Position numbers: made by a program. DNA of 64,000 bases from Pseudobdellovibrionaceae bacterium (GTDB taxonomy: Bacteria > Bdellovibrionota > Bdellovibrionia > Bdellovibrionales > Bdellovibrionaceae): assembly GCA_039810425.1 (NCBI GenBank), contig JBDHWW010000002.1, positions 1 through 64,000 on the forward strand, written 5' to 3'. This document shows, in pieces, positions 15,001 through 21,000 of this stretch (within the stretch, counting starts at the first letter, position 1; each line of letters opens with the position of its first letter).

Positions 15001-18000
15001 CCCACCGAGGCATAAGAAATGATTCTTGCTTTTGGTTTCATACCGAGTTCCTTGGCGCGCTTCTCACTCATAAGAAGTGAACAAGCCGCTCCATCAACGA
15101 TGCCGGAAGAACCGCCGGCAGTCACAAGACCCTCTTTTTTGAAAACAGGTTTCAAAGTCGCCAGTTTTTCCAGCGTGGTCTCTGGACGAGGGTGTTCATC
15201 TTTGTCGACGACAACAGTTCCTTTTTTGCCTTCAATCGTCACGGGGCACATTTCTTCGGCAAAACCACCACGGTCCAAGCACGCTTTGTAGCGCTGTTGA
15301 GATTGCCAAGAATACTTATCCGCGTCTTCACGGGTAATGCCGTACTTCACGGCCAAGTTTTCGGCCGTAATCGCCATGGGGGTCTTTGAATACGCATCCA
15401 CTAAAGCGGCGGTCATGTAATCTTCAAGCTCACCGTTACCCATGCGAAGCCCTCCAAAGCGCATGCCGCGGGCGACATATGGAACCTGCGACATCTGCTC
15501 TGTTCCCCCCGCCAGAACAACACTGGCCTCGCCGGTCTGGATCATTTGCGCCGCCGAGGTCCAAGACTGAAAGCCGCTGCCGCAGAGGCGATTCACTAAA
15601 AGCGCACCCACATTCACTGGGACACCCGACTTCAAACCGATGTGGCGAGGAATATAAATAGCATCCGCTCCAGACTGGATGACATTACCAAAAATCACGT
15701 GATCCACTTTGTCTGCGGGCAAACCAGCTTGCTCTAAAGTTGCCTTAGCCGAGATGACGCCCAAATCCGTCGCTGAAAGATCTTTCAAGACTCCACCGAA
15801 AGCACCGAACGGAGTTCTTTTTCCAGAAATAAAAACGATATTTTCCATAGAATTTCCCAGCCTTTTACAGATGTTTAATCAATAGCGTAATGACAAGTCC
15901 CAGTGGGGTCAAATAAAGGGGAGGAAATAGTTTTTTGTTGCGTGTCGCAAATAAAAAGCTGGGAACTAGAGTAAAAAATTGATTTTTAGCAAGCAAGTGA
16001 TTCAATGGATAGAATGACATTACCTCCAGAAAAACCGACTTCTCCCATTGGCAAAGCGATCCCCCGCAAAGAGGGCCCTCGCAAACTGACTGGCCAAGCC
16101 AAATACATCGACGATCTTGATTTTGAAGGCCTTTACGGAATCACCGTCCGCTCAACGGTGGCTCGTGGAAAGATCAAAGATATTCAATTTGGCCAAGGCA
16201 TTCCTTGGGACGAATTCACCATCGTCACGGCCAAGGATATTCCCGGAAAAAATTATGTCGCATTGATTTTGCAAGACCAGCCTTTCCTCGCTGACGGCGT
16301 CGTCAATCATCCCGAAGAACCGATTTTATTGCTGGCCCATCCAAACAAATACGTGCTTGAGAGGGCCCGCCAAGCGGTCACGATTGAATACGAGAAACTC
16401 ACTCCGGTCTTTGACCTGGAAGAGTCTCTTAAAGGCGCCACCAAAATCTGGGGCGATGACAACATCTTCAAATCTTACCTGCTTGAAAAAGGCAATATCG
16501 AAAGCATTTGGAGCCAAGCGGAACTCATCATCGAAGATGAGTACCACACTGGCGCCCAAGAGCAGCTTTACATCGAAAGCAACGGAATGGTCGCTGTCGC
16601 AAATGCAAAAGACGGTGTCACGATCTGGGGCTCGATGCAATGTCCGTACTACGTTCACAAAGCGTTGCTGCCTTTGTTTGGCATGAGTGAAGACAAGATT
16701 CGCATTATTCAAACCGAAACCGGCGGCGGCTTCGGCGGTAAAGAAGAGTATCCTTCGATCATTGCCGGGCACGCCGCTTTGCTTGCATGGAAATCCGGCA
16801 AGGCGGTGAAGATCGTCTACGATCGCGCCGAAGACATGGTGGCGACGACAAAACGCCACCCTTCTCGCACTCGCCACAAAACGGCGGTGATGAAAGACGG
16901 TCGCATTCTAGGAATGGAAATTCAATTCATCATCGACGGTGGCGCCTATGCGACTCTGTCGTCCGTGGTTTTGTCCCGTGGAACAATTCACGCCGCGGGT
17001 CCTTATCATATTCCGAATGTGCGTATTGATGCCAAAGCAGTTGCGACCAACTCGCCTCCGCACGGAGCGTTCCGTGGATTCGGCGCACCTCAAAGTATTT
17101 TTGCGTTGGAAAGACATCTGGATCAGATCGCTTTGAAACTGAATATGACTCCGGAAGATCTTCGTAAGAAGAACTTCATCAAAGATGGCCAGAAGACGGC
17201 AACAGGCCAAACAATCCACGAAGGCGTCAGCATGGAGGCGCTTCTCGATCGTGCGCTCAAGCACACGGACTATCACGCCAAGCGCAAACAGTTCACGCTG
17301 GACAATTCTCAAAAGAAAATTAAAAAAGGTATCGGCTTCGCAAGCTTTATGCATGGTTCTGGTTTTACCGGCTCGGGCGAAAAATACTTAGCGTCGAAAG
17401 TCGGTATTCAAGTCACGGGCAATGGCCGTGTCGAAGTCCTCGCCGCCAGCACCGAGATCGGCCAAGGCACGAACACCGTCTTTTCGCAAATCGCGGCCGA
17501 CGCTTTAAACGTCAGCTCTGATTTCGTCGAAATCTTCCAGCCGGATACGAAACACGTGCCGAACTCAGGTCCCACCGTCGCATCCAGAACGACAATGGTC
17601 GTTGGCAAGCTCGTGCAATCGGCGGCCATTGGTGTGCGCCAAACCTTACAAACCAAAGGCTACCTTAAAGAATCCTACAGCGAAGAAGAACTTCGCCAAG
17701 CCTGCATCAAGTACGTCAAGGACAACGGCGATCTTAAAATCATCGTCGAGTATCAACAGCCTCCGGGCATTGACTGGAATGATGATACCTACCAAGGCGA
17801 TGCTTACGGTTCTTACGCATGGGCGATTTACGTTGCTGAAGTCAGCGTCGATACCACGACATGGGAAACCAAAGTCGACCACTTCCTGGCCCTCCAAGAA
17901 GTGGGCCGGGTGATCCATCCCGTTCTCGCTGCCGGCCAAATCGAAGGCGGCGTGGCACAAGGAATTGGTTACGCGATTTACGAAAAAGTCCGCTGGCATG

Positions 18001-21000
18001 AGGGCCGTATGATCAACGGTACAATGACCAATTACATTATGCCAACCAGTAGCGATCTGCCAACGATCGAAGTGCTCTTCGAAGAGGTGCCTTACGAGCA
18101 CGGCCCCCGCGGCGCCAAAGGGCTCGGCGAATTGCCGATGGATGGACCTGCTCCGGCGATCCTGAACGCCGTGGCAATGGCAACGGGTCAACAGATCAAA
18201 TCCATTCCGCTGTTACCGGAAGATTTAATGAGAGCGAGCCTATGAAAGTTGAATTTAAACTAAACGGAAAAGAAGTCAGTGTGGATGCTCCTCCAATGAA
18301 ACGTCTTTTAGACGTTCTTCGTGACGAGCTTACAAACACCGGAACCAAAGAAGGCTGCGGTGAAGGCGAATGCGGAGCTTGCTCCGTGATGATGAATCAA
18401 GAACTCGTGAATAGCTGTCTCGTACCAGTGGCCCAATGTGCCGGCGCTGATATCCTGACGGTCGAAGGGCTTGGAACCCAAGAAGATCTTCACCCCATCC
18501 AACAAGCTTTTCTTGAGTGCGGCGGCGCTCAATGCGGGATCTGTACTCCGGGCATGTTGATGGCAAGTTTGGAGCTTTTGAACAAGAATCCAAACCCGAA
18601 CGAAACGCAAATCCGTGAAGGACTTGCCGGTAATTTGTGCCGTTGCACGGGTTATATGAAGATCTTTGATTCTGTGAAAAAAGCTTCGGAGGTTCTAAAG
18701 TGAGAGCCTTCGTCCCAGAATATGAAATGAAAACTCCCGAGAACTTGAACGAAACTCTGCAAATTCTCGCGCGCCATCCGGGCGAGTGGAAGGTGTTTGC
18801 GGGCGGCACGGACTTGATGGTCGTGTTTGAAACCGGCAAGCTCTCGCACAAAAAATACCTCAATATCAATCATATCACGGAGCTCAAAGAGCTTTTGGTG
18901 AATGAAGAAGACGTGATGATCGGCGCTGGTTGCACTTATCGCCAGATTCAAGACAATCCTGTGATTCATAAAGAATTCCCGATGCTGGTGGACGCTGCAA
19001 AACTCACAGGCGCTGTGGCGATTCAAAACCGCGGCACGATTGGCGGTAACATCGCCAATATGAGTCCGGCGGCCGATACGCCTCCGGCATTGCTTGCTTA
19101 CGATGCAGATATTATTTTGCTTTCGACAAAGGGCTACCGCGTTTTGTCTTACAAGTATTTCCATCAAGCTTACAAGCAAGCGGATCTTCGCCCGAGCGAA
19201 ATCATCATGGCTGTTCGTTTGAAGCGCAATCAAGGCATGACTCACGACTATTACCGTAAAGTCGGAACCCGTAGCGCCCAGGCGATTTCAAAAGTCTGCA
19301 TGGCGGCGACCGCTTCCGTGAACCGCCAGCGTAAAATCGAGTGGATTCACTTCGGCTATGGCAGCGTGGGGCCTATACCCCTGCGCGCGATTCGCACTGA
19401 ACATTTCCTGTTCCAGAAAGAACTTACGCCGGAACTCATCAAAGAGGCCCGCAAGCAAATACTCACAGAGATCACTCCGATCGACGATATCCGCTCGGAT
19501 GCGGTCTATCGACGCGAAGTTGCAGGCAACTTGCTCGTCGAGTTTTTAGAGAGTATTAAAGTCTAATGTCATGGGATTGGATTTCCGCGCTTCAAGAATT
19601 AAAACAACAGGCCGTTCCCGCGGCGCTTGTGACAATTATAAAAGCTAAAGGTTCTACTCCCCGCGATATCGGCACGAAAATCCTTGTCACTGACAGGCGG
19701 TTCTTCGGCACCATCGGCGGTGGCCAACTCGAAGAACTCGTCATTGAAAAAGCCCGCGAAATTTTGAAAACACACCAGGCCCCTGAGCGCGTGCCGTTTC
19801 CCCTGTGTATTAAAGCCAATCAGTGCTGCGGAGGTTTCGTGGAGGTCTTTATTGAAACCGTCAATACCGGGCCCCAGCTACTGATTTTCGGCGCCGGCCA
19901 CGTCAGCCAGGCCATTGCAAAAACGCTTGAAGGAACTCCGTTTCAAGTTCACATGATTGATCCGCGCGAAGACTGGCTGGAAAAAGCCGGGAGTTCTGTC
20001 AATAAACATAAAGACAGCGGGATTGAGTTTATTAAAGAGTACGCTCACTGGCATTCCGGGAGAACCTACGCTGTTGTGATGACTTACGATCACGATCTTG
20101 ATCAGAGCCTCGTCGAGGAGCTTTCAAAGAAGGATACGAAGTACTTGGGACTCATTGGCAGCAAGACGAAGTGGCAACGCTTCCAAAAACGCTTCGTTGA
20201 AAAATCCCACCCTGCAGAGCTCCTCAGCCGGGTCCGCTGCCCGATTGGTTTGCCCATCGGCGGCAAATCCCCGCAGGAAGTGGCTATCAGCTTTGCCGCG
20301 GAAATTGTGCAAATACAGAATGAAGTTTTGAAAAACTCTGCAGTTTCCGAAAAATCTCATCACATTTCTCAAGAAGACTCCTGGCTGGAGGACCTGGGAT
20401 GAATTTTATTCTGCTCGCGGCAGGACATGGGAAAAGAATGGGGGGCAATAAAGCCTTGATGGAATACCAAGGCCAGCCGTGGATCTTAACTCAGCTCAAG
20501 CAAATCGCCGACGTCAGTTTTGAAAGCATCACTGTCGTCACCAATGCCGAGTCCGAAGCCGCTCTGGAAAAAATCGTGGAAAACCACTCACCGTCGGTTC
20601 TTGTGCTGACGAATCCCCGCCCGGAATTGGGGCCTTTTTCATCACTCCAGTTGGCTGTCGCCGCGACGCCCGAGGACGCGAGCTTCGTGAGCCCCATGGA
20701 TGTTCCCTTAAAAGCTTCCACGCTCAAGAAACTGCGCCAAGCGTGGCTTCAGCATGGTCATCTCGACGCCCTCATCCCATCACACCAAGGCCGCAAAGGC
20801 CATCCGGTGATTCTATCAGTGGACTTACAACGTGAGTTGTTGAAGCTCTCGCCTGAGGATCCCGAAGCGCGTCTGGACTTTATTTTGAAGACACTGCCTG
20901 AAAATAAAAAAAGGATCCTCAGTGTCGAAGATCCCTTTGTACATCTCAATTTGAATACTCCTGAAGATTTAGCAGCCTTGGCTCGGTGACGGCAGCGTCG

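Follow-up and report, generated by a model that had tools for sequence, protein, structure and literature searches.

Two bacterial systems, the orphan-molybdoprotein bacteria of a 2018 survey and one animal precedent come closest to the locus described here. The pucABCDE operon of B. subtilis, which encodes a three-subunit xanthine dehydrogenase, covers the same five functions: PucD, PucE and PucC are the molybdenum, iron-sulfur and FAD subunits, and an XdhC-type factor and a transferase of the PucB/MocA type complete the set; PucA is XdhC-like. In R. capsulatus, sulfuration and insertion of the molybdenum cofactor (Moco) depend on XdhC, and the two-subunit xanthine dehydrogenase (XDH) receives molybdenum-molybdopterin (Mo-MPT) (PMC13653126). 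Moco made by another organism is used by the nematodes C. elegans and Haemonchus, which take it from dietary bacteria by a mechanism that the nematode papers call unknown (PMC7849362, PMC7619442). E. coli moaA mutants failed to relay protein-bound Moco to worms (PMC7849362); hence, bacterial Moco uptake is not a general property, a point against salvage. Our literature search found no report of bacterium-to-bacterium Moco transfer. A survey by Peng et al. (2018, PMC6147048) raises the question of whether molybdenum is used at all by orphan molybdoproteins, and names pseudogenes, unsequenced genes, new synthesis components and Mo-independent forms as explanations. Its Table S1 lists B. bacteriovorus HD100, one of 305 such bacteria, as Moco-negative and transporter-negative with one xanthine oxidase (XO) family enzyme and one MOSC protein. 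An earlier note on the DNA studied here had found nothing in the literature. For the cofactor-negative, XO-positive state this does not hold, as the HD100 entry was already in print, but salvage is not proposed in the accessible text of that survey, where the word "predator" occurs 0 times.

The window analysed here is the 64,000-nucleotide stretch at positions 1 to 64,000 of contig JBDHWW010000002.1 from a Pseudobdellovibrionaceae genome (99.88% complete, 2.74% contamination, 149 contigs; hereafter the source genome). We found the operon that the earlier note had called intact to be complete at 16005–20989 on the forward strand. It encodes the Mo-cofactor (large) subunit of a three-subunit XDH (16005..18245; 746 aa; MoCoBD_1/2 and Ald_Xan_dh_C, PF02738/PF20256/PF01315), the 2x[2Fe-2S] small subunit (18242..18703; 153 aa; Fer2, PF00111, and Fer2_2, PF01799), the FAD (medium) subunit (18700..19566; 288 aa; FAD_binding_5, PF00941, and CO_deh_flav_C, PF03450), XdhC, a Moco-binding chaperone for sulfuration and insertion (19566..20402; 278 aa; XdhC_CoxI, PF02625, and XdhC_C, PF13478), and a MocA-like nucleotidyltransferase (20399..20989; 196 aa; NTP_transf_3, PF12804). 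The five ORFs are joined, in gene order, by the overlaps ATGA, GTGA, TAATG and ATGA, and their synteny is kept in all seven genus genomes. All modules of the XO family are present (hammerhead, two MoCoBD domains, 2x[2Fe-2S] and FAD), every Pfam match lies above its cut-off, and the small subunit has all eight cluster cysteines (39, 44, 47, 59 and 98, 101, 133, 135). A promoter and terminator scan returned 5 and 10 sites, versus 4.3 and 7.6 expected by chance.

The Mo subunit aligns with bovine XO at E 1e-81, in agreement with the earlier motif alignment, and keeps 13 of 13 checked bovine-equivalent positions (Q767, F798, E802, R880, R912, F914, F1009, T1010, Q1040, S1080, Q1194, G1260 and E1261). 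All 13 are present in 40 of 42 family sequences of subtypes A and B, and at the Mo-site and substrate positions there is no difference from Moco-positive relatives. The subunit thus has the catalytic Glu, which we take to be E1261, and every presumed pterin contact (Q767, R912, Q1040, S1080, Q1194). The set that presumably binds purine (E802, R880, F914, F1009, T1010) is also complete (5/5) and, together with a purine-catabolic gene context, is what is expected of an XDH proper. PucD is the best NCBIfam model, but the subunit falls short of the equivalog cut-offs (PucD 445 versus 783.65 bits, XdhA 408 versus 780, XdhB 378 versus 849.5), and its nearest outside relatives are uncharacterised acidobacterial enzymes, most at 57–67% identity. 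The operon is under purifying selection: dN/dS, derived mainly from the source genome (G000) versus its relative G050, with dS saturated for most genome pairs, is 0.031, 0.019 and 0.021 for the Mo, Fe-S and FAD subunits, 0.080 for XdhC and 0.062 for the MocA-like gene (range 0.019–0.080, versus 0.006–0.092 in six neighbour genes).

The purine context extends beyond the operon. The source genome encodes GuaD, PuuD, the urate-degrading HIUase and a fusion of OHCU decarboxylase with allantoicase, and in Acidobacteriota the same enzyme subtype sits within uricase/allantoinase clusters. The xdh genes lie inside a urate cluster in 6 of 13 fetched loci. HIUase is found in 20 of 64 XO-positive but 0 of 57 XO-negative family genomes, and none of these 20 has moaC; its lack in the other 44 XO-positive genomes counts against a salvage reading. 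The conserved active site, low dN/dS, co-occurrence with urate catabolism and expression of the HD100 counterpart (see below) together make the enzyme look alive. Two literature leads touch on the subject. In the accessible part of PMC3526173, XDH is merely mentioned, in a Bacteriovorax island, and the "xanthine" reported for axenic Bdellovibrio medium (PMC11271337) was assigned by library matching to a substituted xanthine and is uninformative.

The maturation factors fit the cofactor needs of the enzymes they accompany. XdhC scores above the TIGR02964 cut-off (216.6 versus 161.6). The MocA-like protein matches TIGR03310 (E 1e-26, score 94 versus a cut-off of 186.45) better than the MobA model (E 4e-14), and it agrees with E. 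coli MocA at the xAAG and GHP motifs, whereas family MobA proteins show LAGG and lack GHP. It is probably a Mo-MPT cytidylyltransferase. A MocA-like gene adjoins the enzyme in 11 of 11 genomes of subtype A (one cut by a contig end) and in 6 of 6 of the IorAB-like subtype C. A full-length copy occurs in only 3 of the 47 remaining XO-positive genomes, of which 31 were checked and are of the two-subunit type. MocA occurrence thus follows the subtypes expected to need it. The subtype common in the family, B, consists of a fused Fe-S/FAD subunit, XdhB and XdhC, as in HD100 (Bd2633–2635).

The earlier note had reported that moaA, moaC, moaE and moeA are missing, and tblastn and profile searches of the 99.88%-complete genome uphold this. 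The source genome lacks moaA/B/C/D/E, moeA, mobA, modABC and MOT1. E. coli MoaB, MoaC, MoaD, MoaE, MoeA and ModA were all unmatched in tblastn; 44 family-derived moa queries gave only distant radical-SAM matches; profiles built from family moa islands did not find MoaC, MoaD, MoaE or MOT1. B. subtilis served as positive control in the MoaC, MoeA and MoaA searches. The best MoaA-like match reaches E 6.5e-11, versus about 1e-110 for true orthologues. Other candidates were rejected: a MoeB-like match is, as read from the sequences, a ThiF protein of the TcdA type with a TatD-type gene as its neighbour, the sole MobA-profile match is the operon's own transferase, and the sole PF00994 match is CinA rather than MogA. 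We found no pieces of moa genes where contigs break off (of 105 HSPs, three lie near an end, the best at E 0.04 within an unrelated ORF), and no other Mo enzymes (PF00384 and PF00174, 0 matches each). The genes that mark a canonical Mo user (moaA, moaC, moaD/E, mogA/moaB, moeA and a molybdate transporter) are thus missing, while Moco users are kept, which is the gene content of a salvage-type auxotroph.

No transporter was found to follow the trait, which counts against salvage. The claim that modA is absent holds for canonical ModABC, but contig C14 carries a stand-alone ModA-fold binding protein (PF13531, E 1e-31). It was rejected as an importer, having no NCBIfam match, no adjoining permease and relatives below the modA cut-off; in a search with one query it was found in 9 of 121 family genomes and does not track the trait. 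A second PF13531 match is ThiB, and a PF18306 match appears from its sequence to be a usual LOG-type protein rather than a carrier of Moco.

The absence of synthesis genes is a lineage trait and not an assembly gap. An XO-family Mo subunit is present in 64 of 121 family genomes, but MoaC in only 10, MoeA in 10 and MoaA in 9, with MoaE in none of five tested. All of moaA, moaC and moeA are missing in 56 of the 64 XO-positive genomes and in 11 of the 12 that are single-contig, including G020 of the same genus. The recurrence in closed family genomes that had been noted before is therefore confirmed, and the pattern is wider than first claimed; the 121-genome sample points in the same direction as the earlier counts from 31 genomes. 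Since the genomes are kin and not independent, the counts overstate the number of events. Family members with an acquired respiratory nitrate-reductase-type enzyme have an ordinary moa set adjoining it. A MOSC protein is a second Moco user in the family (MOSC_N in 52 of 121 genomes, 47 of them without moa genes). Across the phylum, MoaC is missing in 99 of 155 XO-positive genomes, but 56 keep moaC (19 of 40 in family f19, 7 of 9 in f22), which counts against salvage, as does the Moco-positive state of Bacteriovorax marinus SJ (PMC6147048, Table S1). In control sets the enzyme and the pathway mostly go together: MoaC is found in 36 of 40 outside genomes that share this enzyme subtype (all MAGs, 36 of the 40 being Acidobacteriota by title), and on one page of Table S1, counted by eye, 35 of 39 XO-positive Bacteroidetes rows are Moco-positive, three of the four exceptions bearing single-cell-type (SCGC/JGI) names. 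Predators and parasites do not generally show the orphan state, because the table lists four of four Myxococcus and Herpetosiphon as Moco-positive, while the 16 Legionella rows shown all lack both enzymes and pathway. Moco-positive myxobacterial predators also appear in PMC11509652.

Proteome data are available for HD100 preying on E. coli K-12 (PMC12546842). Peptides were detected for Bd2633 (20), Bd2634 (40), XdhC Bd2635 (12) and MOSC Bd2347 (13), the last increasing at 4 h (log2FC +0.68, FDR 2e–9). XdhB is nearly flat (7.41–7.64 log2) and XdhC declines between attack phase (5.82) and 5 h (5.09), which counts against salvage, because a rise would be expected if loading peaked inside prey. 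The HD100 enzyme belongs to the two-subunit subtype and is 25–28% identical to that of the operon; these data are therefore indirect for the operon.

From the genes, motifs, selection, absences, co-occurrence and HD100 expression we infer an enzyme activity, a molybdopterin cytosine dinucleotide (MCD) form of the cofactor, a Mo-MPT intermediate, an origin in prey and a route of uptake. The source organism, by analogy with relatives named Bdellovibrio and Pseudobdellovibrionaceae, would be a predator. Its operon would provide a working purine-catabolic XDH (hypoxanthine to xanthine to urate, electrons to NAD+) in a cell unable to make molybdopterin or insert molybdenum. Digestion of prey molybdoenzymes would free Mo-MPT, which the predator would take up; the MocA-like protein would add CMP to give MCD, and XdhC with a housekeeping cysteine desulfurase would add the sulfido ligand and insert the cofactor. 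The MOSC protein would draw on the same Mo-MPT pool, unmodified. Uptake of finished cofactor is the simplest explanation left, and we favour its salvage from prey, followed by cytidylylation, sulfuration and insertion, with reasonable though far from full confidence. The earlier note held that the predator must take its Moco, most likely from prey: with a live-looking enzyme and a lineage-wide absence "most likely" stands, but "must" is too strong. Slightly better than even, in our judgment, is the broader proposal that many Bdellovibrionota are Moco auxotrophs importing intact prey Mo-MPT, on which three unrelated XO-family enzymes and MOSC proteins would run, each with only the finishing genes it needs.

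Predation might be just one source among others if Mo-MPT or a protein-bound form were scavenged from lysed cells, neighbours or rich media. The orphan state in phylum families of unknown lifestyle (moaC in 0 of 6 XO-positive genomes in f14 and 0 of 9 in f20), the 305 orphan bacteria in Table 2 of PMC6147048 and HD100 XDH levels in attack phase close to those inside prey (PMC12546842) are in line with such scavenging. However, orphan XO is rare in non-predator sets (4 of 40 outside genomes, 4 of 39 Bacteroidetes rows), and Moco is unstable when not bound to protein (PMC7849362), a point in favour of a short route within the prey cell; we regard general scavenging as unlikely, if the strongest of the rivals. 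Still less probable is an unrecognised, non-homologous pathway that makes molybdopterin and inserts molybdenum. A new route was raised for orphans in general (PMC6147048), and several radical-SAM proteins of the source genome are uncharacterised, two of them encoded side by side on contig C1, but the MoaA, C, D, E, MogA and MoeA steps would all need replacement together, and the ordinary moa set beside the nitrate-reductase-type enzyme of relatives would be redundant.

Equally improbable, in our estimate, is that the proteins either have a function independent of Moco, such as that of a flavin/Fe-S diaphorase or a scaffold, or are relics that have fallen silent. Molybdoenzyme folds do serve without Mo in these cells, the HD100 "DMSOR" row probably corresponding to Bd1608–1612 or NuoG, both presumably without Moco. 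Against this, the residues at the Mo site and for the substrate do not vary, every HIUase among the 121 genomes is accompanied by XDH, and purifying selection acts on XdhC and MocA, both of which have Moco as their known substrate. As for moa genes left unassembled or lost very recently, the source genome is in 149 contigs, and within the genus a moa island is present in G079, while a partial moeA lies at the edge of a contig in G063. Yet the genes are lacking in 11 of 12 single-contig XO-positive genomes, same-genus G020 among them; G000, G050 and G020, all without them, form one clade of the large-subunit tree, with dS to G020 saturated (2.6); and HD100 is Moco-negative in print (PMC6147048, Table S1). 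Such an artefact is very improbable, and at the lineage level it is largely refuted.

The wider interest lies in how the labile Moco moves between cells. HD100 is cultured and genetically tractable and, combined with E. coli moa mutants, makes both Moco transfer and Mo use by orphans testable. Salvage, if true, would mean bacterium-to-bacterium Moco transfer and offer a tractable way to a Moco transporter, as it would allow screening for a first bacterial factor of Moco import or release. Metabolic models of predators would need to include prey-derived cofactors, and "enzyme present, pathway absent" would not always be an annotation error.

Overall, the operon resembles B. subtilis puc in its set of subunits and factors but differs in that its Puc scores all lie below equivalog cut-offs and that B. 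subtilis has MoaC, MoeA and MoaA. The R. capsulatus XdhABC layout equals family subtype B, whereas the operon encodes a three-subunit enzyme with a MocA-like gene; moreover, in R. capsulatus the enzyme that forms Moco hands it straight to XdhC (PMC13653126), and the source genome has no such enzyme. In contrast to the present work, the accessible part of the 2018 survey contains no analysis of a family-typical trait, selection, MocA or urate genes (PMC6147048). Nematode salvage is alike in that a bacterivore uses bacterial-made Moco and in that Haemonchus is without part of the synthesis pathway, but it concerns animals and mainly supplies sulfite oxidase (PMC7849362, PMC7619442). Here, a bacterium is missing all synthesis steps and would load a cytoplasmic XDH by its own nucleotide-adding and sulfurating steps.

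The operon at window positions 16005-20989 (+ strand) consists of five overlapping reading frames for the molybdenum (Mo), Fe-S and FAD subunits of a xanthine oxidase (XO) family enzyme, XdhC and a nucleotidyltransferase. This confirms an earlier note, which had claimed an intact xanthine dehydrogenase (XDH) operon with XdhC and a MocA-like gene; the five genes overlap, and selection and the active site are kept. A divergent thiolase gene lies upstream and a convergent hypothetical gene downstream, and operon GC content is ~51% versus 46-51% over the window. With the large subunit as query, the best named matches come from Bdellovibrio sp. 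HCB337 (85%) and Pseudobdellovibrionaceae/Bdellovibrionaceae MAGs (76-82%); hence the host is Bdellovibrio-like. It is presumably predatory. Operon neighbours are the same in 7/7 genus genomes, so the operon is inherited and is neither a recent import nor a binning error. A 193-aa exported protein encoded immediately 3' of it (21018-21599, – strand) is kept in 7/7 genus genomes and gave no match to Pfam or NCBIfam profiles. A tandem gene pair at 9520-11774 (– strand), flagellin-like by sequence reading, is also conserved within the genus.

Judged from its sequence, the window XDH looks functional. We numbered 13 active-site positions, whose roles we presume, through alignment with bovine XO. 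The window protein keeps 13/13, as do 40/42 family sequences of subtypes A and B (exceptions: one Thr to Asn, one truncated) and 29/30 outside sequences (exception truncated), loci lacking a sufficiently long ORF being left out (3 of the 46 family loci tried or set aside, 10/40 outside). Values of dN/dS against the compared genome G050 are 0.031, 0.019, 0.021, 0.080 and 0.062 for the operon genes in order, versus 0.006-0.092 for six neighbour genes.

We searched the host genome (completeness 99.88%, 149 contigs) with Pfam profiles, tblastn (E. coli and 44 family-derived queries) and profiles from family moa islands. The three concordant searches found no MoaB/MogA, MoaC, MoaD, MoaE, MoeA, MobA, ModA or MOT1 and bear out the claimed absence of moaA, moaC, moaE and moeA. 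The MoaA-like matches are distant radical-SAM proteins, not MoaA; the MoeB-like match is TcdA-like in appearance, and the PF00994 match is CinA. An adjacent pair of uncharacterised radical-SAM genes (contig C1, 78297-80286) gave the top, though very distant, MoaA-profile matches. The claim that modA is missing holds for canonical ModABC only; contig C14 carries a lone ModA-fold periplasmic binding protein without an adjoining permease (46340-47101; 8341-9099 of fetched stretch L116). This protein is found in 9/121 family genomes, and its presence does not follow XDH. The retained MOSC protein, also reported earlier, is present with a catalytic-type Cys motif and is the only further user of molybdenum cofactor (Moco) found; PF00384 and PF00174 had no matches in the genome.

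The same state is widespread. Of 121 family genomes, sampled evenly from a larger group, 64 carry the XO Mo subunit, 10 MoaC, 10 MoeA and 9 MoaA. MoaA, MoaC and MoeA are all missing in 56/64 XO-positive genomes and in 11/12 single-contig ones, which upholds the claimed recurrence in closed genomes. XDH and moaC are not associated (7/64 XO-positive versus 3/57 XO-negative). In the phylum (301 genomes, completeness at least 90%), the Mo subunit is present in 155 genomes and moaC in 81; 99/155 Mo-subunit genomes lack moaC, unevenly between families. Among 40 outside control genomes, all MAGs, with the nearest relatives of the window's subtype, 36 have moaC (3 matches fragmented; G401, flagged unpublished, included). 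Because the genomes counted are kin, all these figures exaggerate how many independent events there were. The only outside locus sharing the five-gene order, L101, comes from one of the four moaC-negative genomes.

Where moa genes occur in the family, they adjoin a nitrate-reductase-type (DMSO reductase family) cassette. Twelve stretches from 10 of 11 genomes with any moa match were considered (G011 left out): molybdopterin or NarH/NarJ-type subunits adjoin moa in 4/6 stretches whose selected ORFs were scanned, and four further stretches have a matching ORF-size pattern. The cassette comprises moaA, a moaC-mogA fusion, sometimes MOT1, moeA, moaD/E, mobA, DUF7009 and moeB with a nitrate-reductase-type operon (L119, L121, L123, L129 and others, from G102, G075, G054 and G032).

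Family XO enzymes form three distant lineages. Subtype A, found in 11 genomes, is the three-subunit type of the window and sister to an acidobacterial clade (FastTree, midpoint-rooted); B is two-subunit, Rhodobacter-like and 25-28% identical to A, in line with the different subtype claimed for relatives; C is IorAB-like (3 loci fetched, 3 assigned by score and position). A MocA-like gene adjoins the enzyme in 11/11 subtype A and 6/6 subtype C cases and is found in only 3/47 remaining XO-positive genomes plus 3 XO-negative ones, weaker matches in ~470-aa frames being taken as GlmU and left out. In genomes G013, G115, G119 and G109, full-length MocA-like genes are not next to the XO Mo subunit gene, or that gene is missing. 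IorAB-like operons (L069, L070 and L071, from G002, G057 and G021), which occur in moa-less genomes too, include MocA, XdhC, a NifU_N protein and a 180-200-aa exported protein with a CxxCH-type motif.

Acidobacteriota loci of the window's subtype are set among uricase, HIUase, allantoinase and guanine deaminase genes, and the host's guanine deaminase is 63% identical to its acidobacterial counterpart. Other host contigs carry PuuD urate oxidase, HIUase (over the cut-off) and an OHCU decarboxylase/allantoicase fusion; IscS-type desulfurases are present. HIUase occurs in 20/64 XO-positive versus 0/57 XO-negative family genomes, with moaC in 0/20, and xdh lies inside a urate cluster at 6/13 fetched loci. 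The 44 XO-positive genomes without HIUase count against this; there the pathway would end at urate. The fusion, 1575 aa (contig C20, ~33890-38610; L115, 9890-14614, P0121), lies behind PuuD and HIUase and joins malate-synthase-like, OHCU decarboxylase, beta-lactamase-fold (SxxK motif kept) and allantoicase modules. It recurs in 12/13 fetched family loci, the exception (G041) having separate genes and canonical AllB. The only AllB-like host match is a dihydroorotase, and the allantoinase may be the beta-lactamase-fold module. In all, 538 homologues were found, and our literature search gave no paper.

Overall, we suggest that salvage from prey would supply Moco to the predator's XDH. We rank this above all four rivals as the best, and a fairly probable, explanation; the lineage-wide lack of synthesis genes supports the earlier note's 'most likely' but not its 'must', and predation by the host is what we infer. 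General scavenging of the cofactor is unlikely. An unrecognised synthesis pathway is less likely still, and so, to the same degree, is a cofactor-free or silent protein. An artefact is highly improbable. In Bdellovibrio bacteriovorus HD100 grown on E. coli K-12, Bd2633, Bd2634, XdhC (Bd2635), adenine deaminase (Bd2636) and MOSC (Bd2347) are made at all time points, according to the supplements of PMC12546842; in the time course in prey given there, XdhB hardly changes, MOSC increases at 3-4 h and XdhC declines. The orphan genes are thus expressed in HD100, a statement about expression level in subtype B.

Because MoaD/E and MoeA are absent, known enzymes would be unable to complete cPMP or metal-free MPT, and MocA would be useful only on Mo-loaded molybdopterin (Mo-MPT). 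Mo-MPT is therefore, as the simplest inference, the common currency, regardless of the form held by the prey enzyme. In Rhodobacter capsulatus, as the consulted part of PMC13653126 has it, Mo-MPT is delivered to XdhB through XdhC.

The literature search found no proposal of Moco salvage by Bdellovibrio and no report of Moco uptake by any bacterium, within a coverage holding few subscription papers. The earlier claim of an empty paper search stands as to salvage, but HD100 already appears as an orphan in the consulted part of PMC6147048, which raises the question of Mo use by such proteins. The operon's enzyme adds a new member to a known family. For one strain, the state of having XDH but no Moco synthesis had already been recorded; its standing as a family trait, and an explanation for it, go beyond that record. 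As far as the consulted parts of PMC7849362 and PMC7619442 go, C. elegans and Haemonchus, respectively, are known to use Moco from their diet.
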